Assembly: GCA_947085635.1 (NCBI GenBank)
Contig: CAMTXC010000006.1
Coordinates: 11,564-75,563 of the forward strand
Length of the DNA stretch: 64,000 nt
Reading direction: 5' to 3'
DNA from: an uncultured Actinomycetes bacterium
Lineage (GTDB): Bacteria; Actinomycetota; Thermoleophilia; RBG-16-64-13
Position numbers and translations under genes: made by a program. The stretch's first letter is position 1. The number at the start of each line of letters is the position of its first letter. Below the pieces are notes generated by a model. It made no database searches and was not told the origin of the DNA. It worked only from the letters and a program-made list of their open reading frames with translations. This document shows, piece by piece, positions 34,455 to 59,587 of the stretch.

Positions 34455-34781
34455 ATGAATACCGTCAAGACGGGTGAGATGATCGTCGTGGGCTCGCGCA
34501 TGTTCGACGCGTGCCGCGGAGGTGGTTGAGCGCCTCCTCTGTCTCTGGAAGAGACGGTCGGCTACATCAATCGCTACCTGCAGCAAGACTACGGTGACCA
34601 CGTCAACGTGGGCTACATCGACGTCGATAGTCCAGCCATGAAGGAGTATCCTGCCTTAGCGGAGGCGGTGGAGCTCGGTCGCGGCGTCCCGCTCGTCCTG
34701 GTGGGCGACACGGTGAAATCTCCGGCGGCTCTGTCGTTCGCGTGGATCGTCAACGAGTTCAAGGCTCTGGGGGTACTGTAG
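34455..34781 (+). CDS. Candidate selenoprotein: 108-codon thioredoxin-fold-like ORF with in-frame TGA at 34527-34529 (..FDACRGGG-U-APPLSLEET..)
   Basis: Absent from the ORF track. One frame stays open from ATG 34455 to TAG 34781 except for a single TGA. High GC3 on both sides of the TGA. A hairpin starts 9 nt after it. Confidence 0.5.
34539..34557 (+). other. SECIS-like hairpin (CUGUCUC-UGGAA-GAGACGG)
   Basis: 7-bp stem including one G-U pair. Starts 9 nt downstream of UGA 34527-34529. Confidence 0.4.
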
Positions 34782-34783
34782 AC

Positions 34784-35002
34784 ATGGCTTCGTATGACCT
34801 CAAGTGCTCCGGGTGCGGGCGGCAGTTCGAAGTGTTCGTGCAGGGCTTCCTGAAAGACCAGCACCGTGCGTGCCCGGACTGCGGCAGCTCGGAAGTCGAG
34901 CAGCTGTTCACCGGGTTCATGATGGGTTCCATGGGGGCCCGCGACTCGGTCGCGTGCGCCTCGGCGCCGCCCTCCGGCTGTTCGCATGCCGGCTTCGGCT
35001 GA
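34784..35002 (+). CDS. FmdB-family zinc-ribbon protein
   Basis: MASYDLKCSGCG..FEV....CPDCGS pattern. Confidence 0.7.
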   Translation: MASYDLKCSGCGRQFEVFVQGFLKDQHRACPDCGSSEVEQLFTGFMMGSMGARDSVACASAPPSGCSHAGFG

Positions 35003-35124
35003 GCGCACTGAATGATGGGGGCCCGTGGGGCCCCCGACTGTTCTTACTCGGCCCACACCGGGCCATGGCGGACGTTGCGGAGGTGGCTGAGGTGAGTGGT
35101 GCGATCGGAGAAACGGCGGAGCGA

Positions 35125-35637
35125 ATGACCCGCAGGTGGGTCGCGTTCCTTGTCATCTCGTCCGTGGTGCTGGTGTTCGCTCTGTGCGCGGCCGCGCCGG
35201 CATCCGCCGCGAGTCTGACTCCGGATCAGGAGGCGCTCGCGTCTGACCTCGACGGCAGGCTCATCTCTCCTTGTTGTTGGACTCAGACGATCGCCGTGCA
35301 CGATAGCCAGATAGCCGAGGAGCTGAGGGCGCAGGTGCGCCTGCTCGTGGCTCAAGGCCTGACCGAGGACGACATTCTCGACGCGCTCGTCGCGCAGTAC
35401 GGCGAGGAGATCCTCGCGGCTCCCCGGGCGGCCGGGTTCAACCTGCTCGCCTACGCCCTCCCGGCTCTCATCATCATTCTGGGGGTCGTGGGCATCGCCC
35501 TGCTCGCCTTGAGGTGGCGTGACGGTGGCGCCGAGGTCGCGCCCGCGGCGGCCGCAGTGGGCGACCGGGGCGTATCCGCAGAGCGGGATCCCCTCCGCTC
35601 CCGCCTCGACGAGGAGCTTTCCCGCTTCGATTCCTGA
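35125..35637 (+). CDS. CcmH/NrfF-like cytochrome c maturation protein, variant with vicinal Cys pair
   Basis: Signal peptide, LISPCCWTQTIAVHDSQIAEELR in place of the LRCxxC motif, C-terminal TM helix. Alternative start at ATG 35065. Confidence 0.6.
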   Translation: MTRRWVAFLVISSVVLVFALCAAAPASAASLTPDQEALASDLDGRLISPCCWTQTIAVHDSQIAEELRAQVRLLVAQGLTEDDILDALVAQYGEEILAAPRAAGFNLLAYALPALIIILGVVGIALLALRWRDGGAEVAPAAAAVGDRGVSAERDPLRSRLDEELSRFDS

Positions 35638-36010
35638 GTCGTAGGCAGCCCGTCTCTCGTGCGGAGTACAGCCGTGTCGTCGATCTGAGACCGTTCGGCG
35701 ACCATGGCGACCGTTGGGCGGTCAAAGCGACCGTTCGCCTGGGGCCCACCCTACGCTCGTCGACCAGCCCTATCTCGTGAGGCCTGCGGGCCCTACAATC
35801 CTCCAAGGCTAGGCGCGGGGGGCGTTGCCGGCCAATCTCCATTATCTTCACGGTTGTGTACTCCCGCGCTTGCTTCGGTTCGGAGTCGGGCAAAGAGAGA
35901 GGTCGCGCCTTGGGAATCACCCGCTTAGAGTTCTTCAAATCACTGTACGGCAGTGCCGCGGGGTGGTCTGTGGTCGCCTTCGTACGGGCCATGTTCAGGG
36001 GGGGAGCGTC

Positions 36011-37117
36011 GTGACGGACATCCTTGCCGCACGCGGCCTCACCCGTCGCGATTTCCTCAAAGTCTGCGGCGGCTTGGCGGCGGCCATGGGATTGGGCCAG
36101 GCGGCCGTTCCCGGCATCGCCAAGGCCTTGGAGGCGGCGGCGAAGAGGCCGCCCGTCATCTGGCTCGACTTCCAGGAGTGCCTGGGTTGCACTGAATCCC
36201 TCTCGAAGAGCCGCTATCCCGATTTCCTGAACATCGTCCTCGACATGATCAGCCTCGAGTACCATGAGGCTCTCATGGCCGGCGCCGGACATCAGGCGGA
36301 GGCGAAGCTCAAGCAGTCGATGGCCGACAACAAGGGCGCCTACGTGCTGGTGGTCGAGGGTTCGGTTGCCACCAAGATCCCGAGCGCCATGACCATCGCC
36401 GGTCGTACTTCGGTTGACATCGCGCGAGAAGCTCTTACCGATGCCGCACTCGTGATCGCCGTGGGCAACTGCGCCTCGTTCGGCAACGTGCAGGCCGCCC
36501 ACCCCAACCCCACCGGGGCTATGGGGATGCTGGCCTTCATGGAGCAGGAGGGCATCGACACGGGCAAGCTGGTGCAGTTGCCCACCTGCCCGGTCAACCC
36601 TATCCACGTCACCAGCACCGTGAGCTACTTCCTCACCTACGGGAAGCTGCCCGAGGTCGACCAGTACCGTCGACCCAAGATCTTTTTCGGGCGCAAGGTG
36701 CATGACGAATGTCCTCGCCGCGCGCATTTTGACGAGGGGCGGTTCGTGGAGGTCTTGGGCAGCCCCGAGGAGTTCGAACGCTATTGCCTTTACAAGATGG
36801 GGTGTCGCGGCCCGCACGCGTACGCGGACTGCGCGACAGTCCTCTGGAACAACAAAGCCAACTGGTGCATCGGTACCGGTTCATGCATTGGCTGCAGTGA
36901 GAAAGACTTCTGGGACGAACTAACGGACTTCTACGCCCCCATGCCCGGGGTGGCTGTGCCGGGCTTCGGCGGGATCCGTGTAGGCGCCGACAGCGTGGGC
37001 ATCGGGTTGGCGGCCGCAACCGGCGGCGCCATCGTCGCCCATCTGGCCGTCAGCGCGGTGAAAGGCCGTATCGGCAGGAACTCCGACGGCACGGTCGCGG
37101 AAGAGAAGGAGGAGTAG
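36011..37117 (+). CDS. [NiFe]-hydrogenase small subunit, Tat-exported, with C-terminal TM anchor
   Basis: TRRDFLK Tat motif, CLGCTES proximal cluster motif, further Cys clusters, hydrophobic C-terminus. Confidence 0.9.
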   Translation: MTDILAARGLTRRDFLKVCGGLAAAMGLGQAAVPGIAKALEAAAKRPPVIWLDFQECLGCTESLSKSRYPDFLNIVLDMISLEYHEALMAGAGHQAEAKLKQSMADNKGAYVLVVEGSVATKIPSAMTIAGRTSVDIAREALTDAALVIAVGNCASFGNVQAAHPNPTGAMGMLAFMEQEGIDTGKLVQLPTCPVNPIHVTSTVSYFLTYGKLPEVDQYRRPKIFFGRKVHDECPRRAHFDEGRFVEVLGSPEEFERYCLYKMGCRGPHAYADCATVLWNNKANWCIGTGSCIGCSEKDFWDELTDFYAPMPGVAVPGFGGIRVGADSVGIGLAAATGGAIVAHLAVSAVKGRIGRNSDGTVAEEKEE

Positions 37118-38755
37118 ATGGCCAAGGTCGTCATCGATCCGGTCACACGTATAGAGGGTCACCTTCGCGTCGAGGTGGAGGTGGAGAACGGCAAGGTCGT
37201 CGATGCGTGGGCTTCGAGCACCATGTTCCGCGGCCTCGAGATGATCGTGGAGAACCGGCCCTGGATGGACGCGTGGCACTACACGCACAGGGTATGCGGC
37301 GTGTGCCCCACCCCGCACGGTCACAACTCCGCCATGTCGCTCGAGAACGCGGCGGGTGTCTCTCCACCGCCGAACGGGCGTCTCATGCGCAACCTGCTGG
37401 AGTGCGCCCAGCTCCTGCACGACCACGTGCTGTGGTTCTACATCTTGAACGGGCTCGACTACGTGAACGTGGTGAGCGCGCTCTCGGCCAAGGCGTCCTC
37501 GCCTCAACTGCAGGCTGTGCAGACACGGCTCAAGGCCTTCGTCGACTCAGGGCAGCTCGGCTTCCTCGAGAGCGGCTACTGGGATCATCCGGCCTACGCC
37601 CTCGACCCTGAACTCAACCTGCAACTTGCCGCCCACTACCTCGAGTCGATCAAGGTGCAGGCGGTCGCCTCGGAGGCCTCGGCCCTGTTCGGCGGCAAGT
37701 TCCCGTACCATATGTCCACTCCGCCGGGCGGGTTCTCCTCGGTGCCGCACCAGGACCAGATCGACCGCTTCGAAGCCAAGGTGCGTGAGGTCAAGGCTTG
37801 GATCGACGGCACCCTGGTGCCCGATCTCCTGGCGATCGCCCCCTTCTATCTCGACCAGGCCGGCATCGGTCAAGGTCATGGCAACTACTTCAGCTGGGGC
37901 GTCATCGACGAGGACCTCGAGGGTGGCGACCCCTACAAGCGGCTCTTCCCGCGGGGGGGCATCTTCGGAGCCTTCGACGGCAACCTCACCGTGCAGCAGG
38001 TGGACCACGAGGCCGACGTGCGCGAGTGGGTCACGAGCTCCTGGAACACCCAGTACGAAGGAGCCCTGCATCCCTGGGAGGGCATCACCGGCCCGGACTT
38101 CACCGGGAAAGAGGGCATCGGCGAGATCGACCGTGAGGGTCGCTACGCCTGGGAGAAGAGCGCGCACCTGAAGGGCGGCCCCGTGGAAGTGGGCCCGCTC
38201 GCCCAGATGCTCATGGCCTATCTCGGCGGACCGGCCGATCATCCCGCCAAGAAGCTCATCGACAACACGCTGGCCGCCGTCGGCCAGGCCGGCAACCCGG
38301 CGGTGCTCCTCTCGAACCTCGGCCGCATCGCGGCGCGGGTTCTCAAGGTGAAGATCATCGGCGACAAGACCCTGGACTACATCGCGCAGTTGCGGGCCAA
38401 CATGGCTGCAGGCGACATGAACTTCTACACGCCTGTGCCCAAGAACCCCACCGGCCGTGGCTTCAGTGGTTGGGACGCCCCGCGCGGCTCGCTGTCCCAC
38501 TGGGCCACCCTGGAGGACGGCCTGGTGAAGCATTACCAGATCATCACGCCGTCGGGCTGGAACTTTGCGCCGCGGGCCGGTGACGGTCGCGTGCGAGGCC
38601 CGGTGGAACAAGCACTCGTGGGCACGCCGGTCGCAGACCCGGAGCGCCCCTTGGAGGTGTTACGGACCTTACACTCCTTCGACCCCTGAATGGCCTGCTC
38701 GGTTCACGTGATTGAACCGAAGAGCAACAAGATCCTCAAGTTCCGCGTCAAGTAG
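37118..38755 (+). CDS. [NiFeSe]-hydrogenase large subunit with selenocysteine at TGA 38687-38689
   Basis: N-terminal RVCGVCPTPHG. The ORF track stops at ..HSFDP, but the same frame continues as U-MACSVH-VIEPKSNKILKFRVK, which gives DPUxxCxxH plus a cleavable tail. Confidence 0.85.
38699..38720 (+). other. SECIS-like hairpin (UCGGUUCA-CGUGAU-UGAACCGA)
   Basis: Perfect 8-bp stem starting 9 nt after UGA 38687-38689. Confidence 0.5.
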
Positions 38756-38765
38756 GCCGGTGATC

Positions 38766-39362
38766 ATGGCGAAGCTGCAGCTCATACGGAAGCACGACAT
38801 CATCGAGCGGTTCATGCACTGGGTACACCTGGTGAACATGATCCTGCTCGTGTTGTCGGGCCTGCAGATCCACTTCCCGGCGTTCAACATCTTCGGCAGC
38901 ATGAGCACGGCTCGATTCGTGCATTTCGTCGACATGTACGTGTTCTTCTTCGTCGGCGTGTTTCACGTGTACCAGTTCTTCGCAACAGGCAAGTGGAACG
39001 TGGCCGGGCCAACGCCGCGCAACATGGCCGGCACCGGAGCGGTCATCAAGTACTATCTGTTCATGGCCGACACGAAGCCGGAATACGGCAAGTACAACCC
39101 CTTGCAGATCATCACCTACTTCCTGCTGTTCGGCATCTCCGCCGTCATGGCGGTCGTGGGCTTCGCGCTCTACTGGCCGGTGCAGCTGGCGGTGGTGGTG
39201 AACGCCTTCGGAGGCATCATGACCCTGCGACAGGTGCACTACATCCTGGCGTGGGTGTTCATCGCGTTCAGCATCGTACATGTCTATCTGATCCTGACCC
39301 AGCCGCTCAAGTACACCAGGGCAATGGTCACGGGGCACTACTGGAAGCGTGCCGGCGGGTAG
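38766..39362 (+). CDS. Ni/Fe-hydrogenase b-type cytochrome subunit (HyaC-like)
   Basis: Four TM helices with conserved His residues (HWVH, HFVD, H..). Immediately downstream of the large subunit. Confidence 0.85.
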   Translation: MAKLQLIRKHDIIERFMHWVHLVNMILLVLSGLQIHFPAFNIFGSMSTARFVHFVDMYVFFFVGVFHVYQFFATGKWNVAGPTPRNMAGTGAVIKYYLFMADTKPEYGKYNPLQIITYFLLFGISAVMAVVGFALYWPVQLAVVVNAFGGIMTLRQVHYILAWVFIAFSIVHVYLILTQPLKYTRAMVTGHYWKRAGG

Positions 39363-39383
39363 CTCTTCTGCATAGTCCGCAGC

Positions 39384-39416
39384 GCACCGGCGGCGCCCCT
39401 CGGCGCCGGCCGGTGC
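39384..39416 (+). terminator. GC-rich hairpin (7+7 bp with one bulge) after the hydrogenase operon
   Basis: GCACCGGCGGCGCC-cctc-GGCGCCGGCCGGTGC. No clear U-tract. Confidence 0.45.
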
Positions 39417-39557
39417 GGTCGGCCCTCGAGACGCCGTCACCCCCCAGGCGGCGTCTCGCCCTTTCCGGTTCGGAGCCCTCCGTGCATGGGGGCAGGGTCG
39501 TTTCCGGGACACCCTTCAACGGGTACATTCACATGAACACCGCCCTTGGAGGAATCC

Positions 39558-40499
39558 GTGCCTGCAGACCTACAGAGATCCGTTCACTACGACGTAGTCG
39601 TGGTCGGCGCCGGGCCGGCCGGCATCACGGCCGCCATCAACATCGCCAACCGCAAGCGCACGGTGCTGGTGCTCGACTCCCAGTCCCCGTTCTCGAAGGC
39701 GGGCAAAGCGCCCGCCGTGCCCAACTACCCGGGGTTCGCCTACGCCACCGGTGAGCAGCTCGGCGAGGCGTTCCTCCAGCACCTCGACCGCTTCGAGGTG
39801 CCCATCGTGCGCGAGAAGGCCTCGAAGATCATGGCCGACGACGACGGGTTCCTCGTGTTTACCGACCGTGAGATGTACCGGGTGAAGGCGGTGATCCTCG
39901 CCACCGGGGTGCATCGGTTGACCGATCTCGAGGGCGAGGATGCCCTGGTCGGGCGGGGGGTGAGCTACTGCGCCAACTGCGACGGCCGTCTGTTCGGCGG
40001 GCGGGAGGTGGTCTACATCGCCTACAGCCCGGATGGGGAGGAGGAAGCCTCCGTCCTCTCCGAGGAACTCGGCGTCTCCGTGACCTACCTGCCGCTGTAC
40101 GCCGAGGAGCCGAACCTGCCCGAGAGCGTGAAGGTGTTGCCGCGGGAGCGCCCCGACCGGCTGTACTCCCGCGACGGCAAGGTGGCGGTCGAGTTGAAGA
40201 GCGGCCCCCTCGTGGTCGACGGGGTGTTCGTGCACAAGCCGAGCGTCGCTCCCGGCGATCTGGTCGAAGGCATCCAGGTGGAAGATGGGCACGTGGTGGT
40301 CGACCGGCGTATGGCGGCCGGAGTGCCCGGCGTGTTCGCGGCGGGGGACGCGACGGGCGAGCCGTACCAGATCGCGAAGGCCGTGGGCGAAGGCCAGGTG
40401 GCGGCCCTGCATGCTCTACGGTACCTGCGCGAGCGTGCACGTCCACCCACCCCGGAGGAGCCGCCGGCGCTTGCGGCGGCCGACTGCGTACCGCGATAG
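39558..40499 (+). CDS. Thioredoxin-reductase-like flavoprotein lacking canonical NADPH-binding motifs
   Basis: GAGPAG FAD motif, CANCDG redox motif, GDATG. AYSPDG replaces GGGNSA. GTG 39558 follows GGAGGA. Confidence 0.8.
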   Translation: MPADLQRSVHYDVVVVGAGPAGITAAINIANRKRTVLVLDSQSPFSKAGKAPAVPNYPGFAYATGEQLGEAFLQHLDRFEVPIVREKASKIMADDDGFLVFTDREMYRVKAVILATGVHRLTDLEGEDALVGRGVSYCANCDGRLFGGREVVYIAYSPDGEEEASVLSEELGVSVTYLPLYAEEPNLPESVKVLPRERPDRLYSRDGKVAVELKSGPLVVDGVFVHKPSVAPGDLVEGIQVEDGHVVVDRRMAAGVPGVFAAGDATGEPYQIAKAVGEGQVAALHALRYLRERARPPTPEEPPALAAADCVPR

Positions 40500-40608
40500 A
40501 TCTTGAACGGCGTGCAGGTAGCGGACGAAGCCGGCGAGGGACCCCTTACAGAGGATCGCCTACTCCGCCTCGTGCTCGGCACGGCCGCATCGTGCGCGCA
40601 GCAGCGCC

Positions 40609-41007
40609 CTAGCGCTCTATGGCTCCCCTCCACGCCTGGATGCCCTGGGCCATGTCGAACACGTCTTTGTAGCCCGCCGCGCTGAGCATCGCCGCCGCCT
40701 CGGCGCTTCGGCTCGCTGTGAGACAGTAGACGATGATCGGGCGGTCGCCGGGCACCTCGGCCATGCGCGACTTGAGTTGTTGCACGGGTATGAGGACTGC
40801 GCCGGGGATGTGGCCCGCGTCGAACTCGCTTTGGGTTCGAACGTCGAGCAGGAAGACCTGTTCTCCCGAGTCGAGTCGCTCCCTCACCGTCTCCGGGCTG
40901 ATCGAGGTGTATGTGCCCGCGCACCCCGAGAGTACTGCGATCGCTCCCACTATCGCCGCCGCCGCGAGTGCCGCGAGGGCGCGGCGTGCGGTGTCTTGGC
41001 GACTCAT
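40609..41007 (-). CDS. Rhodanese-domain sulfurtransferase, lipoprotein
   Basis: LSGC lipobox. Active-site loop CLTASRS. Confidence 0.8.
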   Translation of the reverse strand: MSRQDTARRALAALAAAAIVGAIAVLSGCAGTYTSISPETVRERLDSGEQVFLLDVRTQSEFDAGHIPGAVLIPVQQLKSRMAEVPGDRPIIVYCLTASRSAEAAAMLSAAGYKDVFDMAQGIQAWRGAIER

Positions 41008-41339
41008 CGCTTCACGTCGAAGGGCCAGCGGCTGATACCGCCCTCCATGTTGTACACGTTCTCGTACCCGAGTTCCACCAGGAGTCGCGCCCCACGCTTG
41101 CTTCGGGCGGCGCTCAGGCAGTAGAGGATGATGTCGCCGCCGGTCTTCAGTTCTTGGTGTCTGCGGGGCAGGTCGTTCAGAGGCATCAACTTGGCCTTGG
41201 GGATATGACCCTGCGAGAACTCACCGGGGGAGCGGACGTCGATCAGTTGCACCCGGTCTCCTGCACTCAAGCGCGCCTTGACATCGGCCGGAGAAAGGTT
41301 GGTGTATCCCTGCGGTTCGCGATTGAACAACTTGAACAT
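41004..41339 (-). CDS. Single-domain rhodanese sulfurtransferase
   Basis: Active-site loop CLSAARS. ATG 41339 follows AAGAGGAG. Its stop overlaps the downstream start. Confidence 0.8.
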   Translation of the reverse strand: MFKLFNREPQGYTNLSPADVKARLSAGDRVQLIDVRSPGEFSQGHIPKAKLMPLNDLPRRHQELKTGGDIILYCLSAARSKRGARLLVELGYENVYNMEGGISRWPFDVKR

Positions 41340-41383
41340 TGATCCAACTCCTCTTTGCGATGTGCCCCTCCGGGCGATACCGG

Positions 41384-41578
41384 TCAGGACTCCTTCATGG
41401 AAACGGCTTCGTACGGGCACTCCTCGACGCAATCGCCGCATCCCATGCAGTCCGACGGCTTGACGATCGCCTCCTCGTGGGGACCCATCTTGACGATCGC
41501 CTTGGTGCGGCAGGCCTTGCGTGCCGGGCACGGATAACAGGCCTCGCAGCGCGCGTAGTCGATTTGGGCGAGTCTCAC
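41384..41578 (-). CDS. Small 4Fe-4S ferredoxin-like protein
   Basis: CEACYPC...C and CMGCGDCVEECP motifs. GTG 41578 lies 8 nt after GGAG. Confidence 0.6.
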   Translation of the reverse strand: MRLAQIDYARCEACYPCPARKACRTKAIVKMGPHEEAIVKPSDCMGCGDCVEECPYEAVSMKES

Positions 41579-41744
41579 CTGCCCCACTCCTCGGTCAGAT
41601 ACCCATGGGGGTATGCGATGCATCATGGTAGACGACGCGGCCGGGCTTTTCAAGGAACGAGGAGTGGAATGCGGGAGGAACCTGCTCGCGGCGGACGCGA
41701 TCTACTCAGCGTGGAGCACTTGGAGCGGCGCACTGGGTTCTCGT

Positions 41745-41761
41745 CACTACATCGTGTAGTA
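41745..41761. promoter_or_regulatory. Operator-like inverted repeat CACTAC-N5-GTAGTA
   Basis: One mismatch to the TACTAC-N5-GTAGTA motif seen at three other promoters. Lies 67 nt upstream of the TPR gene. Confidence 0.45.
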
Positions 41762-41827
41762 TCCCGTTTCGACGTTCTCCAGTGACGGGCACAGCGGAAT
41801 ATCGGACGGTCGAAAGGAAGCGCACGG

Positions 41828-42514
41828 ATGAATAGGAACTACCTTGTCGCCATCATCGTGGCGGCCGTCGTCGTGGTCGGCCTCATCGTGGTGGTACCCA
41901 ACCTCGATGGCGGGAACACCGGCGGAACCAGCGGAACCACTCTTGGATCCGCGCCGCCCATCCCTGAGGACGCCACCATGCCCGAAGGTCATCCCGACTT
42001 GGGGGAAGGCTCAGATGCGACCGGGACGGAAGCCTCCCTCGAGGCCCTCGTGGCCGAAGCCGAGGCCGCATATGAGGCCGACAAGACCGACCTGGTAGCA
42101 GTCCTGGCGCTCGGAGACGCGTATCTTCAGGCGAACCGAGTCGACGATGCTACCCGCGTGCTGAACGAAGCATTGGCAATCGATGCAGGGAACGCCGAAG
42201 CCAAGGCCGGTCTGGCCATGGTCGACTTCGTGAACGGCGATACCGCGGCCGCGCAGAGCAAGCTCGAAGCCGTCATCGCTGAGTCCCCCGACTCGCAGAG
42301 GGCCTTGTACGATCTCGCCGTGGTCTACTTCTCGACGGATCAGCGCGACAAGGCGAAGGACACCTGGGCGAAGGTGGTCGAGGTCAACCCGCTCAGCGAG
42401 CTGGGCGAGATGGCCAAGCAGTTCATCGATCTCATGGGTCAAACGGAGACCTCGGGCGGCAGCCCGCACGGCGCCGATGGGTCAACGGGGACCACGGCTA
42501 CCACGAGCCAGTGA
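41828..42514 (+). CDS. Membrane-anchored TPR-repeat protein (CcmI/NrfG-like TPR module?)
   Basis: N-terminal TM helix, acidic linker, three or four TPR-like repeats. Confidence 0.65.
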   Translation: MNRNYLVAIIVAAVVVVGLIVVVPNLDGGNTGGTSGTTLGSAPPIPEDATMPEGHPDLGEGSDATGTEASLEALVAEAEAAYEADKTDLVAVLALGDAYLQANRVDDATRVLNEALAIDAGNAEAKAGLAMVDFVNGDTAAAQSKLEAVIAESPDSQRALYDLAVVYFSTDQRDKAKDTWAKVVEVNPLSELGEMAKQFIDLMGQTETSGGSPHGADGSTGTTATTSQ

Positions 42515-45857: not shown

Positions 45858-45893
45858 TCAGGTGCGTGCACGCGACCTCGACGGGCTGCCGGC

Positions 45894-51662: not shown

Positions 51663-52327
51663 GCCAAGCCTGGATCATCGCCCGCAAGGACATCATCGGG
51701 GAGCTCCGCACTCGGGAGACGATCCTCTCCATGCTGCTCTTCGGCTTCCTGGTGATCCTGATCTTCAACTTCGGCATCGAGCCGGGGCTGCGGGAAGAGA
51801 ACCTCGTGAAACCCGGTGTGCTCTGGGCGGCGTTCACCTTTGCCGGCATCCTCGGCCTCAACCGAAGCTTCATAGCCGAGAAAGAGAACGACTGCCTGCA
51901 GGGCCTGCTGCTCTGCCCGGTGGACCGCTCAGTCATCTACCTCGGCAAGTTCTTCGGGAACTTCATCTTCACCCTGAGCATGGGCCTGGTGGTGTTCCTG
52001 TTTTTCTCGGTGCTTTACAACGTGAACCTGGCGCAGGTGGCACTGCCTCTAGGCGCCATCCTCGTGCTCGCGACCATCGGCTTCGCCGCGGTCGGCACGC
52101 TATTCGCGGCGGTATCGGTGGGCCTGAAGACGCGCGACGTGATCCTCTCGATCCTCCTCTTCCCGGTGATGGTGCCCGTGGTGCTCGCCGCCGCGAAGTC
52201 GTCGGGGCGGGTGCTCGACGGCGTTCCGCTGGCCGGCGCCGGTCTGTGGCTCGCCTTGCTGGTGGTCTATGATGTGATATTCCTGACGGTGTCCATCATG
52301 CTGTTCGACTATGCGGTGGAAGAATGA
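51650..52327 (+). CDS. ccmB: Heme exporter membrane protein CcmB
   Basis: Six TM helices with CcmB-like motifs (FNFG, LLCPV). TTG start overlaps the end of ccmA. Confidence 0.8.
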   Translation: MGFLSQAWIIARKDIIGELRTRETILSMLLFGFLVILIFNFGIEPGLREENLVKPGVLWAAFTFAGILGLNRSFIAEKENDCLQGLLLCPVDRSVIYLGKFFGNFIFTLSMGLVVFLFFSVLYNVNLAQVALPLGAILVLATIGFAAVGTLFAAVSVGLKTRDVILSILLFPVMVPVVLAAAKSSGRVLDGVPLAGAGLWLALLVVYDVIFLTVSIMLFDYAVEE

Positions 52328-53124
52328 TGACGACCGTGTCTGGAGGGATTACCGTGGAGCACGACACGCAGGCGGCCGTCGCGGGTGGAGGATCCTCCGG
52401 CGGCGGTGTGACCACTGCAACGACCCCCCCTCTGCCTGACTCGGGGCGCACCCTCTGGTTCGACATCCTGGGCGTGGCGGCCATTGTCTCGGTGCTCGTG
52501 GCGCTCTACGGCGCCATCGTCTGGGCCCCTACCGAGGCGGTCATGGGCCACGTGCAGCGCATCTTCTACTTCCACATGCCGAGCGCCTGGGTGGCGTTGG
52601 GGCCCGCGTTCACCATCGTCTTCATCTGCAGCATCGTGTACCTCGTGAAGAAAGACCTGCGCTACGACCGGATAGCGGGGGCTTCCGCGGAGCTGGGAGT
52701 GCTCTTCACCACGATCACTCTTCTCACCGGACCCCTGTGGGCCAAGCCCATTTGGGGCGCCTACTGGACCTGGGATCCGCGTCTCACCACCACGCTGGTC
52801 CTGTGGTTCATCTACGTGGCCTACCTCATGCTCCGGTCCTCTATCACCGAGGGACACAGGCGCGCCCGACTCTCGGCTGTGTTCGGCATCGTCGGGTGGA
52901 TCGACGTGCCGATCGTCTTCATGTCGATCCGGTGGTGGCGAACGATCCACCCCACCTTGGTCACCGGGGAAGGCATGAACCTCGACAGCTCGATGCAGGC
53001 CGTGCTCCTATTCTCCCTAGGCGCCATCACTCTCCTGTATGTGTTCCTTCTCGTCGTGCGGGTCCGTCAGCTTGACATGGGCTCGCGCATCGATCGTCTT
53101 CGTCAACAATTCCACCTGCGCTAG
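52324..53124 (+). CDS. ccmC: Heme exporter protein CcmC
   Basis: WGAYWTWDPRL WWD motif. ATGA overlap with ccmB. Confidence 0.9.
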   Translation: MMTTVSGGITVEHDTQAAVAGGGSSGGGVTTATTPPLPDSGRTLWFDILGVAAIVSVLVALYGAIVWAPTEAVMGHVQRIFYFHMPSAWVALGPAFTIVFICSIVYLVKKDLRYDRIAGASAELGVLFTTITLLTGPLWAKPIWGAYWTWDPRLTTTLVLWFIYVAYLMLRSSITEGHRRARLSAVFGIVGWIDVPIVFMSIRWWRTIHPTLVTGEGMNLDSSMQAVLLFSLGAITLLYVFLLVVRVRQLDMGSRIDRLRQQFHLR

Positions 53125-53135
53125 GAGTCTTCTGC

Positions 53136-53279
53136 ATGAGTGAGCTAGGTTTCCTGTTCGCCGGTTACGCCGTGGTGTGGGTCGCTCTCGGAGGGTACAT
53201 GCTCGCTGTCGGCCGTCGCCAGTCCACGCTGCGGCGTGAGATCGCCCGGCTCGAACAGGAGTTCAACAGCGGGGAGTGA
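53136..53279 (+). CDS. ccmD: CcmD-family small membrane protein (47 aa)
   Basis: Below the ORF-track cutoff. TAGGAG Shine-Dalgarno site, a single TM helix (FAGYAVVWVALGGYML), then a basic and coiled tail. Confidence 0.65.
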   Translation: MSELGFLFAGYAVVWVALGGYMLAVGRRQSTLRREIARLEQEFNSGE

Positions 53280-53348
53280 GCCGGTACGAACCGTCGGTCC
53301 TGTCTTCTCCCCGGACGATCGCGAGGCCGCGGGGCTCTTGCTGTGCCC

Positions 53349-53365
53349 TACTACGACTGGTAGTA
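53349..53365. promoter_or_regulatory. Operator-like inverted repeat TACTAC-N5-GTAGTA (putative autoregulatory site)
   Basis: Perfect 6-5-6 inverted repeat 33 nt upstream of the BlaI-like gene. Confidence 0.55.
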
Positions 53366-53397
53366 TTCGAGCACATCGGGGAGGAAGGTGGTTGCCC

Positions 53398-53835
53398 ATG
53401 GACGGAGCGGTGAATCTCAACACGGGTCAAGAAGGTCTGCGTCAGGTACTCGGCGAGCTCGAGGCCGAGATCATGGAGCGCATGTGGGATCGCGGCTCTT
53501 CGTCGGTGCGCGATATCTACGAATGTCTCGCCGAGAGGCGTGAGATCGCATACACCACGGTCATGACGGTGATGGGCAGGCTGGCCGACAAGGGCCTGCT
53601 CAGCCGCAGGCAGCAGGGCCGGGCCTATCTGTACAGCCCATCGGAGACGCGTGGTTCGTTCTGCGCCGGAGTCGTGCGGAGTGTGGTGGAGGGTCTCTTC
53701 GGGGGCGCGAACCGCCCCGTGCTCGCCCACTTCGTGGAGCAGCTGTCGGAGGAGGACGGAGCCGATCTCGACATGCTTGCCGCCATCATCGATGAGAAGC
53801 GCCGGGAGCGGCGATCATCGACACCTTTGGCCTGA
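53398..53835 (+). CDS. BlaI/MecI/CopY-family winged-helix transcriptional repressor
   Basis: E.EIM..W, Y.TV.T...RL..KG motifs. ATG follows GGGGAGGAAGG. Confidence 0.85.
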   Translation: MDGAVNLNTGQEGLRQVLGELEAEIMERMWDRGSSSVRDIYECLAERREIAYTTVMTVMGRLADKGLLSRRQQGRAYLYSPSETRGSFCAGVVRSVVEGLFGGANRPVLAHFVEQLSEEDGADLDMLAAIIDEKRRERRSSTPLA

Positions 53836-53870
53836 CAGTCACCTACGCGCTCATCCTGGCCGGGCCTTGG

Positions 53871-54896
53871 TTGGTCCGCCGCTTTCTCGAGGGACGCGCG
53901 CGGCCGCGCACGCTGGCCTACACCTACCTCGCCACTCTTCTCGCCGCCGCGGGCGCTACGCTCGCCCTGCTCGTATCCCTCTTGCTGCGCTATCTGCCGC
54001 ACGGCCTGCTCACTCGGGCGGGACTGGCGTGCGACATGGAAGTAGCCTGTGCGTCGCCCCTACCGCCCTGGGCGGGCTCCACATTCTCCTTCCTCATCGG
54101 CGGAGTGATCGTGGGGCTTGTGCTGTTCGCCGGGGTCGCGATATATGGGCAGACTAGTTGCTCCACGCGTAGACGACTCGACGTGGTGAGTTCGGCGATG
54201 GAGTTCCCCTGTGCGGTCCCGTCGGGCCTGCGCGGGCGGGTGTACCTCGTCGACGACCCCGCGCCCGTCTCCTACACCATCGGCTTCTGGCGTCCTCAAG
54301 TCATCGTATCTTCGGGTCTCCTTGCCACCCTCGACGAGGACGAGCTCCGTGCGGCCCTCGCGCACGAGGAGGGCCACGTGGTCGCGGGTGACAACCTCAT
54401 GGTGCTCGTGGCGCGCACGCTTGCCCTGACCTTCGCTCTGGTGCCCGGCGTCGGCATGGCCTACGCCCGGTTGCGCAAGGCGCAGGAGCGGGCGGCCGAC
54501 GAGTTCGCCCGCGATCGCACCGGCGACGGCCTTCTGGTGGCCGCCAGTCTCACGAAGTTCGCACGTTCACTGCTCGCGCCGGCGCCTTCCCGGCGGGTCG
54601 AGATCGCGACCACGTCTTTCGCCGAAGAGGGAGATGTGAGCGAACGTGTCCGCGGCCTCCTCTCCAACAGCCGTGTCGCCACCTCGAAGCGCCGACTGGC
54701 AGCGGTAGCCCTCGCTTTCGTGGTGCTCGTGGCCACGTTCTCCGGCAGCGCCCTGGCGTTCACCGGCGTCACGTTGGCCTCTCGGTCCGACTGCTCGACG
54801 TGTCATGAGCTGCGGGTGGTGTCGGCCGGCGCTGCCACGATGCACGAGAACCCGAGCCTGCACGCGGAGTGCGTGGATACCTTCGTTCAGCACTGA
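53871..54896 (+). CDS. BlaR1-like M56/M48 zinc metalloprotease sensor with C-terminal CxxCH motif
   Basis: HEEGH motif, multiple TM helices, final TM helix followed by SDCSTCHE. Start is uncertain because the upstream in-frame sequence looks like another TM helix but has no canonical start codon. Confidence 0.75.
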   Translation: MVRRFLEGRARPRTLAYTYLATLLAAAGATLALLVSLLLRYLPHGLLTRAGLACDMEVACASPLPPWAGSTFSFLIGGVIVGLVLFAGVAIYGQTSCSTRRRLDVVSSAMEFPCAVPSGLRGRVYLVDDPAPVSYTIGFWRPQVIVSSGLLATLDEDELRAALAHEEGHVVAGDNLMVLVARTLALTFALVPGVGMAYARLRKAQERAADEFARDRTGDGLLVAASLTKFARSLLAPAPSRRVEIATTSFAEEGDVSERVRGLLSNSRVATSKRRLAAVALAFVVLVATFSGSALAFTGVTLASRSDCSTCHELRVVSAGAATMHENPSLHAECVDTFVQH

Positions 54897-54981
54897 TCGC
54901 GTAGCCCGGCGCCCCGCCCCGCCGCCTCCCTTCGCCCCGCAGGAAAATAACACCCGTCTCGGTCGCGGGGCCTTGTTCACC

Positions 54982-54998
54982 TACTACGCTCTGTAGTA
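54982..54998. promoter_or_regulatory. Operator-like inverted repeat TACTAC-N5-GTAGTA
   Basis: Perfect repeat 44 nt upstream of the DUF2318 gene. Confidence 0.55.
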
Positions 54999-55041
54999 CT
55001 ATGGCTGCAGCCGATACACCCTGTGAGAGGGAGATGGAGAC

Positions 55042-55674
55042 GTGTCGAAGAAACAGACGGCCCGGAAGGGCGATCTGAAGGCAAAGCGGGAGCGTTTCGA
55101 AGAGGCCGGGAAGTTCCCCGTGGGGAAGCTGATCGCGGTGAGTGTCATCGTGCTCGGGCTCGCGTTCGGCGGCTTCGCGGCGTACCAGTACTTCGTGGCA
55201 CCGCAGGCGGTGGGCGGCGCGACCGTGGACTCCGGCGTCTCGTATCCGGCGGGTCAGGTGCCCATGGTGCCGCTCGACGCGCAGCAGACCGCCGAAGGCC
55301 TTTCCTTCCCGGTGCAGGGTCTGAAGGACAACCTCATCGTGGGGCTCACGTACGAGCGCTCGCAACCCATGCCGGCCGGATACCAAGCCGCGACGGGTGG
55401 AAGCAGCCTGCCGCTTCTCAGCTACATCTCCCCGAAGGGGAACCTGGTGGTGGCGACTTCGTTCTGCGAACCGTGCCGCGGTGACAGCTTCCACATCGAC
55501 GGCAACGCCTTGGTGTGCGACGTCTGTTTCACTCGTTGGGACCTCGACACGCTTGAAGGCCTGTCGGGCGGGTGCATGGCGTATCCTCCTGAAGAAGTGG
55601 CCGCGGAACTAGTAGGCGACACCGTGTTCATCCCCAAAGCCGATCTCGAGGCGTGGGTGCCGAGGGCATTCTAG
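55042..55674 (+). CDS. DUF2318-like membrane-anchored Cys4 protein (FetA/Cj1660-like)
   Basis: N-terminal TM helix. C-terminal CEPC...CDVC...GGC pattern. Confidence 0.65.
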   Translation: MSKKQTARKGDLKAKRERFEEAGKFPVGKLIAVSVIVLGLAFGGFAAYQYFVAPQAVGGATVDSGVSYPAGQVPMVPLDAQQTAEGLSFPVQGLKDNLIVGLTYERSQPMPAGYQAATGGSSLPLLSYISPKGNLVVATSFCEPCRGDSFHIDGNALVCDVCFTRWDLDTLEGLSGGCMAYPPEEVAAELVGDTVFIPKADLEAWVPRAF

Positions 55675-55733
55675 GTGCTGGTCTTTCAAGAGTCGCGGGG
55701 TAGGCTGGGCCGCCTCAGAGTACGACGGCGGCC

Positions 55734-56891
55734 GTGAGGCTCTCCTCGATAGCGTTCCGCAACGTGCGGCGCCACCTCTGGCGGAGTGCGCTGGTGTTCG
55801 TGGTCATCGCCGCGTCGGTGGCGGTGGTCACCAGTCTCTACCTTGTGACCCGCAGCGCCGAGCGCGACCTGGAGAACAAGGTCGATGAGTACGGCGCCAA
55901 CATCGTCGTCGTGCCTCGCAGCGAGGAGTTGCCACTGTCGTACGGGGGCGTGCAGGTGGGCGGGCTCACCTACGACGTAGAGCCTCTGCACATGGACGAC
56001 ATCGCGGTCATCAGGGGCATCGAGGAAGGCGAGAACATCAATCTCGTGGCTCCGAAGCTCGTGGATTCGGCCGAGGTCGGGGGCGTGCGGGTGTTGACTG
56101 TGGGAGTCGACTGGGCCTCCGAGCTCAGTCTGAAGAGGTGGTGGACCGTCGTGGGGACGTCACCATCCGGCGCCGGTGACGTGCTTTTGGGCGACCGGGC
56201 GGCGCGGCACCTTGGCCTGGGTCCAGGCGATCCCGTCGAGTTGCGCGGGGAGCAGCTCACGGTCGTGGCCGTGTTGGAGCCCACCGGCACCCAGGAGGAC
56301 GACCTGCTCTTTCTCGACCTCGGCGTGGCTCAGCGTCTGTGGGATCGCCCCGACGAGGTGAGTTTCTTCGAGGTGGCCGCGTGGTGCGCGACCTGCCCGA
56401 TCGAAGTCATCAACGCTCAGATCTCGGCCGAGATGCCCTATGCCCGGGTGTCCGCCATCCTGAAGGCGGCGGAATCGCGAAGGATCCTCATCGGCCAGTT
56501 CCGTCTGTTCACGTTGGTACTCTCCGTGCTCATGGTCCTGGTGGGGTGCCTGATAGTTCTCGTATCGACCCTCTCGTCCGTACGGGCTCGTCGCGGCGAG
56601 ATCGGCATCTTCCGGTCGGTGGGTTACCGGCGGCAGCACATCTTCAAGATCATCCTGCTCGAGAACCTCGCGTTGGCCCTGTTTGGGGGGGTGGCGGGTC
56701 TGCTCGTGGCCGCGGTGGTGCACGCGCCCATGGCCCGGGCGGTCGCCCAGGTGCGCGACACGATGCCCCTTTCCCCCACCGACCTGGCCCTCGCTCTGCT
56801 CGCTTCTTTGCTCGTGGTGCTGGTGGCGAGCCTTTATCCGGCGGGTCGGGCCGCGGCTCTCAGCCCGACACTGGCCATGAAGAGGGTGTGA
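55734..56891 (+). CDS. FtsX/MacB-type ABC transporter permease 1
   Basis: TM1, large periplasmic domain, then three TM helices with the FtsX motif. Confidence 0.8.
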   Translation: MRLSSIAFRNVRRHLWRSALVFVVIAASVAVVTSLYLVTRSAERDLENKVDEYGANIVVVPRSEELPLSYGGVQVGGLTYDVEPLHMDDIAVIRGIEEGENINLVAPKLVDSAEVGGVRVLTVGVDWASELSLKRWWTVVGTSPSGAGDVLLGDRAARHLGLGPGDPVELRGEQLTVVAVLEPTGTQEDDLLFLDLGVAQRLWDRPDEVSFFEVAAWCATCPIEVINAQISAEMPYARVSAILKAAESRRILIGQFRLFTLVLSVLMVLVGCLIVLVSTLSSVRARRGEIGIFRSVGYRRQHIFKIILLENLALALFGGVAGLLVAAVVHAPMARAVAQVRDTMPLSPTDLALALLASLLVVLVASLYPAGRAAALSPTLAMKRV

Positions 56892-56895
56892 CGTC

Positions 56896-58053
56896 GTGGA
56901 GCTTCGGCACATCGCCCTCGGCAATCTTCGACGCCGGAAAGGCAAGGCGGCCCTCATCACCTTCGGACTCGCGGTGGCGGTGGCGGCTTTCGTGCTCGTG
57001 CTCTCGCTGATACTCTCTCTGCGCGCCACGATGGACGACAGGCTCTCTCGCTACGGCTCGAACCTCCTTGTGACTCCGCCGCGCACCGATCTCGACCTCT
57101 CCTACGGCGGCGTGAGTGTGTCTGGCGCAGGCAGCGGCGAGGTGCTCTATCTTGACGAGGTCGATCTGGCGGCCATCCAGGCACTCGGCGAAGCTGGGCG
57201 ATCGGCGGCCGTCATCCCTGTGAGGCTCGAACCCTTGAGTCTCGAGGGCCGGCCGGTCCTTGCCATGGGCACCGACCTCGCCGAGAGCGCGAAAGTGAAG
57301 CTCTGGTGGAGGGTCGAGGGTAGCCTTCCGGACTCCCCCGACGAGATCCTGCTCGGCCTCAATGTGAGGAACGAGTTCGGGTTGGACCGTGGCGACACGG
57401 TCGAGATGGGGGGGCGGCCGTTTACCGTGTCCGGTGTGTTGTGGGAGACGGGCGACGAAGAGGACAACCTGGTCATTGTGGGGCGGGAGGCCCTGACTTC
57501 ACTCACCGGCGAAGGCGGTCGCATCAACCTCATCGAAGTGACGGCGGCCTCCACCTCCGATGTCGAAGCGCTTGTCGCGGACATTGAGCGGGCGCTTCCC
57601 GATGCGGACGTCACCTCGGTCAAGCAGAGTATCGAGTTCAACAATCAGGCCGACTCCTCGTTGGCGCGCTTCGGCCTGGCGGTGATGCTTCTCATCGTGG
57701 TGATCTCAGGTCTTGTGGTCACGATCACCATGTTGACCGCGGTGCAGGAACGTCAGAAGGAGATCGGCATCTTCCGGGCGGTGGGTTTCAAGCAGCGCCA
57801 CATCGCCACGCTCATCGTCCTGGAATCGGCCATGCTGAGTTCTTCCGCGGCTGTGATCGGAGTCGTGGGGGGTCTGGGCGCCGCTTCGCTGGCGCCCCGC
57901 CTGGTGCGCGAGTCGGAGTTGGGTTTCCACTTCGATCCGCTCCTCATCGCGGCGGGTGTGGCGGTAGCGTTCCTCGTGGGGTTGTCGGCCGCGGTCTACC
58001 CGGCGTGGCGGGCCGCGCAGATGGATCCGGCGACGGCTTTGAAGTACGTGTGA
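56896..58053 (+). CDS. FtsX/MacB-type ABC transporter permease 2
   Basis: Same architecture as permease 1. KEIGIFRAVGF motif. Confidence 0.8.
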   Translation: MELRHIALGNLRRRKGKAALITFGLAVAVAAFVLVLSLILSLRATMDDRLSRYGSNLLVTPPRTDLDLSYGGVSVSGAGSGEVLYLDEVDLAAIQALGEAGRSAAVIPVRLEPLSLEGRPVLAMGTDLAESAKVKLWWRVEGSLPDSPDEILLGLNVRNEFGLDRGDTVEMGGRPFTVSGVLWETGDEEDNLVIVGREALTSLTGEGGRINLIEVTAASTSDVEALVADIERALPDADVTSVKQSIEFNNQADSSLARFGLAVMLLIVVISGLVVTITMLTAVQERQKEIGIFRAVGFKQRHIATLIVLESAMLSSSAAVIGVVGGLGAASLAPRLVRESELGFHFDPLLIAAGVAVAFLVGLSAAVYPAWRAAQMDPATALKYV

Positions 58054-58124
58054 TGAAGACGGCCGCGCGCACCCCGGGGTGACGCGCGGCTCCGAATGGA
58101 GACGAGAGCGACGGGAGTGGGAAC

Positions 58125-58823
58125 ATGGCCCTCATAGAAGTCGACGGCGTTCGGAAGGAGTACGGCGACGCCGAGTGCCGGGTGGTCGCCCTGCACGAGG
58201 TGTCTCTAGAGGTGGAGGCCGGCGAGTACGCGGCTATCATGGGCCCTTCGGGCTCGGGCAAGACCACGCTGCTCTCCATACTCGGCGCGATGAACCCACC
58301 CACGTCGGGCTCGCTGCGCATCGACGGCATCGACGTCTACGACCTCTCCCAGGAGCGCCAGGCCGACCTACGCCGGGAGTACATCGGCTTCGTCTTCCAG
58401 CAGCTCGAGCTTGTGCCCTACCTCAGCGCACTGGAGAACGTCATGCTGCCCCTCGCCATCTTGAAAGAGCGTGGGAAGAGACAGCGTGCTCTCGAAGCGC
58501 TCGCGCGGGTAGGTATCGACGAGCAGAAGGGGCGACGTCTTCCTTCAGAGCTCTCCGGAGGCGAGCAGGGGAGAGTGGCGATTGCCCGGGCCGTCGTGAA
58601 CGACCCACCCATCATCCTCGCGGACGAACCGGTGGGCAGTCTGGACACATCGACGGGGCGGCAGATCCTCGATCAGCTGCGGGCCCTGGCGGACGGCGGC
58701 CACGCGGTCGTCATGGTCACGCACAATCCGGACTCCACGGCTGATGTCGATCGGGTCATCCAGATCCTCGACGGGAGCGTATCTTGCGACGACGGTCCCA
58801 AGATCTGCGTGATCCCGAGCTGA
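58125..58823 (+). CDS. ABC transporter ATP-binding protein (MacB/LolD-type)
   Basis: [29 protein letters not shown]. Confidence 0.9.
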
Positions 58824-58940
58824 TGTCGGTGCGGGGGAGGTGCGGCGGCGGCGCGGTGGCCATATACCACTGGGGGTATCGGGAAAGGTTTGCTAGAATC
58901 CGTGAGACGACGCTGCTATCCGACTTGACCGAGAAGTCGG

Positions 58941-59045
58941 TGAGAGGAAGGCCGATGAGAGGAAGGCCGATGAGAGGAAGGCCGATGAGAGGAAGGCCGA
59001 TGAGAGGAAGGCCGATGAGAGGAAGGCCGATGAGAAGAAGGCCGA
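58941..59045. repeat. 15-bp tandem repeat x7 (tgagaggaaggccga); each copy carries AGGAAGG followed by ATG
   Basis: Six perfect copies and one variant, read directly from the sequence. In frame it encodes (MRGRP)n. Confidence 0.95.
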
Positions 59046-59587
59046 TGAGAAGACCGACCTCGCGCGTGGCCCTGGTGGCCGCGTTCGCTCTGCTGCTGGG
59101 ACTCATAGGGGTCCTCGGGTGCGGTGGGCAGGCGGTCACGAGTGGATCAGGCGTGGCCGCGGCGCCCGACTCGACCGATTCCCGCAAGCCGGCCCCCGCC
59201 TTCAGCGGCGTTACGATGGACGGCGCCGAGGTGTCTCTGGCCACGTTCGAAGGAAAGCCGCTCGCGCTCATCTTCTGGGCCACCTGGTGACCTTCTTGCA
59301 GGGCGGAGACGCCCGAACTCGATAGGTTCTATCGAGAGAACAAAGACGACATCGGGTTCCTCGTTATCGCGATCCAGGACGCTGAAGCCGATGTGCGGGC
59401 CTTCATGCAACAGGGCGGATACGACCTCCCCGTGCTCCTCGACCCGCCGGGCGCTATCGCCAACGCCTACCGGGTATCGGCGGTGCCTACGGCCGTCTTC
59501 ATCGATCCGGAGGGTAATATCGCGAGCATCAAGGTGGGTCAGACCACGGCCGCTCAACTCGAGGAGATCACCTCGGCGTTGCGATGA
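59045..59587 (+). CDS. TlpA/ResA-like thiol:disulfide oxidoreductase lipoprotein with selenocysteine (FWATW-U-PS-C) at TGA 59288-59290
   Basis: The ORF track splits it into 58784..59290 and 59393..59587, which are in the same frame. LGC lipobox. Any repeat ATG from 58955 to 59045 could be the start. Confidence 0.8.
59293..59317 (+). other. SECIS-like hairpin (upper stem GGGCG-GAGA-CGCCC at 59301-59314)
   Basis: The upper stem starts 10 nt after the UGA. A lower 3-bp stem forms across a 5-nt internal loop. Confidence 0.4.

Follow-up and report, generated by a model that had tools for sequence, protein, structure and literature searches.

Probable selenocysteine codons in three redox protein genes of an uncultured Thermoleophilia bacterium, one of them followed by a candidate two-hairpin insertion element

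Introduction

The bacterial selenocysteine (Sec) insertion sequence (SECIS) of the E. coli fdhF type is a hairpin within the coding sequence that follows the UGA and has a small loop with a G followed by G or U. The constraints published for bacterial SECIS elements (bSECIS; PMC13188914, which summarises the consensus of Zhang and Gladyshev 2005) are a loop of 3-9 nt, an upper stem of 4-16 bp, a spacing of 16-37 nt from the UGA to the loop, a G at loop position 1 or 2 that is usually followed by G or U, and a free energy of -7.5 kcal/mol or lower. During our analysis of a 64,000-nt stretch of DNA, which we call the window (contig C6:11564-75563 of the metagenome-assembled genome, MAG, of an uncultured Thermoleophilia bacterium of the Actinomycetota), we found UGA codons at 34527, 38687 and 59288 to lie in frame within the genes for a small thioredoxin-fold protein (site 1), a [NiFeSe] hydrogenase large subunit (site 2) and a periplasmic TlpA/ResA-like thiol:disulfide oxidoreductase (site 3). 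At all three sites a stem-loop followed the UGA directly within the coding region, and the hairpin coordinates and sequences given in the initial annotation of this DNA were exact. We consider it very likely that the three UGAs are Sec codons in three redox proteins, each read by the standard bacterial SECIS/SelB route, SelB binding and selenium incorporation being what we infer from the comparisons described below. In that route the hairpin just past the UGA would recruit SelB with Sec-tRNA(Sec) to the ribosome paused there. The MAG comprises 2.09 Mb in 35 contigs (66% GC) and is 74.8% complete; its close relatives carry the labels Thermoleophilia, Gaiellales or Actinomycetota.

The closest described system to the hydrogenase is the group 1 [NiFeSe] hydrogenase large subunit (HysA) of Desulfovibrio and Desulfomicrobium, which has the same PF00374 fold, the same RxCGxC motif and the same DP-U-xx-C-xx-H motif with Sec as a Ni ligand, and likewise has an adjacent small subunit and a cytochrome b; a 2026 review describes [NiFeSe] hydrogenases as occurring exclusively in sulfate reducers and methanogens. 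The TlpA-like protein resembles the UxxC redoxin selenoproteins (TlpA/ResA/DsbE relatives) in its AhpC-TSA/Redoxin domain, in having Sec for the first Cys of a CxxC motif, in the existence of Cys forms in related lineages and in its CcdA neighbour. The small protein is likest to the thioredoxin-fold proteins of the DUF1462 (YuzD)/ArsD type, with which it shares a predicted thioredoxin-like fold and which its remote homologues, with Cys where it has Sec, match weakly. We found no paper on the selenoproteins of Thermoleophilia and, in the papers that we consulted, no description of a SECIS laid out as two hairpins, the arrangement we propose for site 3. The system as a whole works like textbook bacterial Sec decoding; it is known biology in a new lineage, plus one undescribed selenoprotein family.

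Results

A [NiFeSe] hydrogenase large subunit with a conserved in-frame TGA

We identify the three UGAs as probable Sec codons because each TGA recurs in many genomes within protein sequence that is conserved before and after it, and because homologues of all three proteins have Cys at the same position; alignment to these homologues also bore out the earlier proposal that each product is a redox protein with Sec at a Cys-type position. The hydrogenase large subunit (37118..38755, forward strand; PF00374, E = 1e-143) is 545 amino acids long, with its conserved, in-frame UGA (38687..38689) encoding the predicted Sec524. Its translation contains RVCGVCPTPH, the N-terminal RxCGxC motif, and DPUMACSVH, the C-terminal Ni-binding motif in which Sec aligns to the first Cys of DPCxxCxxH. 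Each of the 32 large-subunit homologues found in the class had one TGA (32/32), and the motif DPUxxCxxH was present in 29 hydrogenase loci. Public gene calls stop the protein at 523 residues, so that on paper the enzyme loses its nickel ligands through gene calling. It differs from HysA-type enzymes in its host, a member of the Thermoleophilia, and in scoring below the cut-offs of the NCBIfam equivalog models NF033181 and NF045518 (471 vs 600 bits and 330 vs 780); by these profile scores it is a divergent clade and not an equivalog of the named enzymes. The accompanying [NiFe]/[NiFeSe] hydrogenase small subunit (35825..37117, forward strand; matches to PF01058 and PF14720) probably has its real start downstream of the listed 35825, its counterparts in relatives being called at 367-368 residues with a twin-arginine translocation (TAT) signal.

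The site 2 hairpin (38699..38720, forward strand) follows the UGA after 9 nt and reads UCGGUUCA-CGUGAU-UGAACCGA, with an 8-bp stem (38699-38706 with 38713-38720) and a loop (38707-38712) that begins 17 nt past the UGA. Its core of six pairs and loop, GGUUCA-CGUGAU-UGAACC, was identical in 29/29 loci, over protein identities of 51-100%, and the C-G pair flanking the core was kept in 25 of the 29 and broken in four. The hairpin retains the rare codons GTT (4.9% of Val codons) and ATT (4.2% of Ile codons).

It seems to us extremely improbable that the TGAs are plain stop codons or lesions in pseudogenes, with hairpins that are terminators or incidental structure in GC-rich DNA. Standard gene callers do end genes at these TGAs, the assembly is without Sec machinery, and other in-frame TGAs of the MAG (in cydB and in an IS110 transposase, described below) look like lesions, but the TGAs and their flanking protein sequence are conserved in dozens of genomes at identities down to 34%, homologues have Cys at the same position, and the hairpins covary or retain rare codons. 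Truncation would, moreover, cost the hydrogenase its Ni ligands and the other two proteins most of their length.

A small selenoprotein family with a GGU motif

The small thioredoxin-fold selenoprotein gene (34455..34781, forward strand), recognised from its open reading frame (ORF) translation and its homologues, encodes 108 amino acids with Sec25, and lies directly downstream of the thioredoxin gene trxA (34045..34428, forward strand; PF00085, E = 4e-30), an order that is the same in relatives. Its UGA (34527..34529) is in frame with the ATG at 34455, the sequence around it reads GSRMFDACRGGG-U-APPLSLEETVGYINRYL, and the motif of the family is GSR...GGU-x-P-x-LSLEE. Homologues were present in 37 of the 151 genomes of the class that we compared, with exactly one TGA in each (37/37), and the TGA stood at the aligned position in 30/30 loci compared, at identities down to 34%. 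The residues G13, S14, D18, G24, U25, P27, S30, L31, E32, E33, Y54, D56, P66 and P79 were invariant; a Cys five residues upstream of Sec in the window's protein was not conserved. When we scanned 185,579 species representatives (GTDB) with a DNA pattern of TGA plus hairpin, 70 stretches matched, 66 of which encode members of this family, and the wider family included MAGs labelled Bacillota and one labelled Armatimonadetes. A back-translated protein pattern with Sec read as a Cys codon found no Cys form with that exact motif in the species representatives.

No Pfam or NCBIfam model matched the small protein, and compared with PF07315 (DUF1462/YuzD) it gave no match at E ≤ 0.01. A profile search of 1.84 billion proteins found remote homologues, full length and with Cys in place of Sec (GGCGP or GCCGP), which match DUF1462 (YuzD) and ArsD weakly, P0056 being the only one above the PF07315 gathering score (32.9 vs 25 bits). 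By these matches the Sec protein would be at most a distant relative of DUF1462, from which, as from ArsD, it differs in always having Sec in Thermoleophilia, in its lack of a library match and in its unconserved neighbouring Cys. An AlphaFold2 model built from 28 sequences had a confidence (pLDDT) of 86.8 and the layout beta-alpha-beta-alpha-beta-beta-alpha; its top structural matches were all thioredoxins, and these were weak (E about 1e-2, TM score about 0.48).

The site 1 hairpin (34539..34557, forward strand) also begins after 9 nt and reads CUGUCUCU-GGA-AGAGACGG, with an 8-bp stem (34539-34546 with 34550-34557) and a GGA loop (34547-34549) that starts 17 nt past the UGA; it can also be drawn with 7 bp and the loop UGGAA. 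Over the 8 bp and 30 genomes, 240/240 pair cells were paired, the two basal pairs changing on both sides (CG->UA and GC->UA), and among the 66 wider matches pair 2 occurred as UA, GC, AU, UG, CG and GU. The rare codon TCT (5.6% of Ser codons) is kept within the hairpin.

Public gene calls render the small protein as fragments of 59-81 residues. Four public records (P0022, P0039, P0057 and P0108) are full length and have W at the Sec position, which would speak for UGA being read as another amino acid, whether Trp or Gly under a reassigned code or Cys through a tRNA resembling tRNA-Sec, the more so as the Sec machinery cannot be inspected in this assembly. We nonetheless regard such a reading as very improbable. 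A gene call with translation table 4 (TGA = Trp) would be expected to print just this W; in-frame TGAs are confined to a few Cys-equivalent sites, each with a hairpin after it; and congeners carry selA, selB, selD and a tRNA-Sec (UCA). Among the confident ORFs of the genome (n = 1,218, called by codon-position GC content), TGA was also the commonest true stop, ending 719 of the 1,206 that have a stop (60%), from which we conclude that the genetic code is standard and reject a genome-wide reassignment of TGA.

Relatives have these genes arranged as thioredoxin, small Sec protein, zinc-ribbon protein and/or CcmH, Sec-TlpA and CcdA; in the window's genus 24 kb with the hydrogenase and ccm genes splits this order into two halves. 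This neighbourhood suggests a role for the small protein in a thiol/selenol relay for cytochrome c maturation. In three relatives of the window region (L023, L025 and L028), the thioredoxin/small-selenoprotein pair has Se_S_carrier (PF11823) and DsrE-like genes a few kb upstream of it.

Chance occurrence of hairpins and fit to the published model

For an estimate of how often such hairpins occur by chance we recorded contiguous hairpins beginning 8-13 nt downstream of 717 true TGA stops, 13,039 intragenic out-of-frame TGAs and 3,654 random codons. Hairpins equal to those of sites 1 and 2 occurred at 0.5-1.5% of positions, and hairpins equal to the one noted first at site 3 (hairpin 1) at 12-13%; sites 1 and 2 are thus far beyond chance, and hairpin 1 of site 3 alone is not. 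The control that had been proposed for the hairpins, comparison with random TGA contexts, therefore upheld two of the three. A G in the apical loop, which the initial annotation had pointed out at each site, proved uninformative, being present in about 80% of the hairpins that arise by chance. Folding energies of the whole region were not significant against shuffled sequence in this GC-rich genome (z of -0.7 at site 1 and -0.5 at site 2), and only the position-specific test set sites 1 and 2 apart from background.

In our own implementation the full bSECIS model was passed by 5.7-7.8% of random TGAs, and with the loop start narrowed to 16-20 nt past the UGA by 0.8-1.6%; sites 1 and 2 pass this narrow test and hairpin 1 of site 3 does not. 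Stem and loop sizes lie within the published ranges at site 1 (8 bp/GGA), site 2 (8 bp/CGUGAU) and both hairpins of site 3 (5 bp/GAGA and 8 bp/GUU), as do the free energies (-8.8 kcal/mol at site 1, -10.0 at site 2, -9.3 for hairpin 1 and -8.4 for a second site 3 hairpin, hairpin 2). The loop has the expected G at site 1 (GG), site 2 (GU) and hairpin 2 (GGU or GU), whereas hairpin 1 has G then A and follows only a weaker form of the rule. The spacings of 17 nt (site 1), 17 nt (site 2) and 35 nt (hairpin 2) are likewise inside the published range, that of hairpin 1 (15 nt) outside it. Among the three sites the hairpins share geometry and almost no sequence, and their loop lengths differ; non-preferred codons are kept in the hairpins of all three (hairpin 2 at site 3). 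Unlike known bacterial SECIS elements they matched no Rfam family, either at the gathering threshold over the whole window or at E ≤ 10 around each site, and the loop of site 1 is GGA.

Two hairpins follow the UGA of the TlpA-like gene

The TlpA/ResA-like gene (59045..59587, forward strand; AhpC-TSA and Redoxin domains, E about 5e-24, above the Pfam cut-off) encodes a lipoprotein with the lipobox LGVLGC, and its UGA (59288..59290), in frame and conserved in the Sec forms, falls in the sequence FWATW-U-PS-C. The W-U-PS-C aligns to the W-C-GP-C of Cys forms, with Sec as the first Cys of CxxC. The closest homologues (family f1, 42-76% identity) are Sec forms; we found about 24 TlpA-like Sec forms, and Cys occupies the Sec position in other families and in a few f1 copies. 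The stop codon overlaps the start of a gene for a CcdA/DsbD-type membrane thiol transporter (59584..60306, forward strand; PF02683, E = 8e-18). The gene differs from those of the described UxxC redoxin selenoproteins in its candidate two-hairpin SECIS, its lipoprotein product and the repeat upstream of it. This repeat, at 58941-59050 and directly upstream of the gene, consists of 7.3 copies of the 15-nt unit TGAGAGGAAGGCCGA, each with a Shine-Dalgarno-like GGAAGG and an in-frame ATG, so that the N-terminus of the protein could read MRGRP repeated.

Hairpin 1 (59301..59314, forward strand; GGGCG-GAGA-CGCCC, 5 bp) begins 10 nt past the UGA and has its loop start at 15 nt. Hairpin 2 (59318..59336, forward strand; CUCGAUAG-GUU-CUAUCGAG, with 8 bp, or 7 bp and the loop GGUUC), which the initial annotation had overlooked, begins at +27 and has its loop start 34-35 nt past the UGA. 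RNAalifold predicted the two independently. Among 20 Sec-form orthologues hairpin 2 was much better conserved, with 98.8% of its pair cells paired and nearly no variation: it was kept in 20/20, its six central pairs were invariant, and the outer pairs showed three single-base differences. It was also present in 3/4 further Sec paralogues or orthologues, the one without it being a distant form of family f4 (L214), and it was absent in 9/10 Cys forms. Hairpin 2 is built of the rare codons AGG (8%), CGA (9%), TAT (17%) and GAT (24%), and is the only element of site 3 that fits the published SECIS model. The one Cys form with both hairpins, a paralogue (L080, G031:C20:28641-29048), adjoins a Sec-form copy and looks like a recent Sec-to-Cys conversion with a fossil SECIS.

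Hairpin 1 (14 nt) and the linker after it (3 nt) together span 17 nt, and with these removed hairpin 2 would have its loop start at 18 nt past the UGA, inside the 17-20 nt window of the lineage, for which reason we propose hairpin 2 as the SelB binder with hairpin 1 folding aside. With hairpin 1 folded, the single-stranded path from the UGA to hairpin 2 would be shortened to 13 nt, and hairpin 2 would be the SelB-binding element of the gene, a division of roles that we infer. Given its conservation and its fit to the model, we lean towards hairpin 2 as the element that SelB would bind.

It is also conceivable, though we doubt it, that hairpin 1 is the SelB-binding SECIS, so that all three sites share one geometry, and that hairpin 2 is accessory (e.g., a pause site or stabiliser). 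Hairpin 1 occupies the position that the SECIS has at the remaining seven Sec sites of the genome (loop at 15 vs 17-20 nt), and three of its pairs show changes on both sides. In the distant f4 Sec form, furthermore, the only hairpin has its GGUC loop 20 nt past the UGA and lies roughly where hairpin 1 does, which favours hairpin 1 by positional homology. Against this, only 74% of the pair cells of hairpin 1 were paired and its register shifts among orthologues; in its loop, as a rule GAGA, GAAG or GAGG, the G then G/U of the other sites is mostly absent; at 15 nt it lies closer to the UGA than the published 16-37 nt (PMC13188914), so that in both spacing and GA loop it falls just outside the usual bSECIS pattern; and, as given above, its equal is found at 12-13% of random TGAs. 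A SelB-binding hairpin 1 would also not account for hairpin 2 being nearly invariant in Sec forms alone. The hairpin geometry said to be common to the three UGAs holds for sites 1 and 2, and for 7/8 Sec sites genome-wide, and is doubtful at site 3, where the element that fits the SECIS model is probably hairpin 2.

Further Sec genes and a common SECIS position

For each TGA in the genome we asked whether the sequence before and after it had coding potential and whether a SECIS-type hairpin was present, and candidates were then backed by Pfam/NCBIfam matches, conservation in congeners, or both. As had been anticipated for such a scan of TGA-interrupted ORFs, it found more Sec genes, five in number (loops are paired with genes here by listing order): an AhpD/CMD-domain protein with C-AP-U (CxxU; C30:6203, loop GGUC), a thioredoxin-like protein with S-U-VL-C (C30:6682, loop CGUGAGC), a CopZ-N-terminal 2Fe-2S protein ending GGG-U-C (C16, minus strand, loop GGUCG), a DsbA-like protein with U-PF-C (C2, minus strand, loop CGGGUAU; TGA kept in 5/5 relatives) and a hypothetical membrane-anchored protein with LLFE-U-TTPPG (C10, minus strand, loop CGGGU; TGA kept in two congeners). 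In all five the loop starts 17-20 nt past the UGA, which makes this the rule at 7/8 Sec sites in the genome, the TlpA-like gene being the exception, with a SECIS-type hairpin that, unlike known bacterial elements, comes after another, covarying hairpin, at 34-35 nt from the UGA. The lineage SECIS has a stem of 5-8 bp and a loop with G then G or U (7/8 sites), and the AhpD-like and CopZ-N-terminal sites even have GGUC-type loops, a likeness to the described bacterial elements.

The genome encodes at least seven or eight selenoproteins, a lower bound for an incomplete genome, and the full set is probably about nine genes counting SelD, which is Sec-containing in all five congeners. The suspicion that standard gene calling under-reports a sizeable selenoproteome was well founded: the set is moderate in size, standard gene calling sees none of it, and the public calls are truncated.

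Most other TGA-joined ORF pairs were same-frame neighbour genes, e.g., upp/dCMP deaminase, ATP synthase b/delta and GlcD/GlcF, and were rejected. In cytochrome bd subunit II (cydB; C19, minus strand, 21758) PF02322 spans an in-frame TGA (E = 2e-99) that is not at a Cys-type site and has no SECIS-like hairpin after it; a lesion that turned TGG into TGA, or else a base-call error, is the probable explanation. An IS110-family transposase (C12, position 51708), whose DEDD domain contains an in-frame TGA and whose C-terminus is garbled, is probably a decayed copy. The two Sec genes on C30 form a cluster (C30:5106-6900) in the order ArsR-type regulator, AhpD/CMD selenoprotein, thioredoxin-like UVLC selenoprotein, and the regulator has a TGA about 20 codons ahead of its apparent end. 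On C16 (minus strand, 28803) the CopZ-N-terminal gene runs in frame, with no stop, into a metallophosphoesterase gene; that of congeners ends about 25 codons past Sec. An FdhD/NarQ gene lies just past CcdA at window positions 60622-61671, and we found no Sec-type formate dehydrogenase in this genome, every FdhA-like match being without internal stops. Contigs C1, C15 and C32 have 52-56% GC, against 65-68% in all others, and may be bin contamination.

The Sec-decoding machinery

Several observations weigh against Sec at these sites or against the roles that we assign to the hairpins. Searches with ARAGORN, Rfam RF01852 and TIGRFAM models found no selA, selB, selD or tRNA-Sec in this 75%-complete assembly, and decoding in this genome itself is presumed. 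The core of the site 2 hairpin never varies and so offers no covariation, two of the eight Sec sites (the AhpD-like and the thioredoxin-like) fail a simple contiguous-stem filter, and the single hairpin of the distant f4 form counts against hairpin 2 of site 3 as noted above.

The check for selB and the other Sec genes, by which the Sec proposal was to be judged, thus failed in the assembly and succeeded in the same genus. In two same-genus genomes (G002 and G005) selA adjoins selB on a contig that also carries tRNA-Sec (anticodon UCA), and selD lies elsewhere with its own TGA. The 20-kb regions of G005 around selA/selB and around selD had no nucleotide match of ≥ 300 bp in this assembly. As whole neighbourhoods are missing, the absence reflects incompleteness and cannot count against the Sec trait. 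We retain Sec, very probably inserted through SECIS elements, as the reading of the three UGAs; the interpretation of these as Sec codons made at the outset is upheld by TGAs conserved across genomes and Cys in homologues.

Discussion

Two features of the window may, we tentatively suggest, together be undescribed. One is the two-hairpin SECIS of the TlpA-like gene, in which a GGUUC hairpin at 35 nt would be combined with a covarying 14-nt 'clamp' that restores the usual spacer of 9-13 nt. The other is the small GGU protein as founder of a selenoprotein family absent from Pfam/NCBIfam, always with Sec in Thermoleophilia and some Bacillota, and tied to thioredoxin, CcmH, Sec-TlpA and CcdA. The analysis flags this family as one that curated libraries are missing, and leaves the two-hairpin SECIS open to bench testing.

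For gene annotation, selenoprotein genes are routinely shortened by gene callers, and here the small family is catalogued only as C-terminal fragments. The loop start 17-20 nt past the UGA is a lineage-specific SECIS rule that can be used for re-annotating these genomes. For the biology of the lineage, our findings give Thermoleophilia a selenoproteome of about eight or nine genes and extend the [NiFeSe] hydrogenases beyond sulfate reducers and methanogens.

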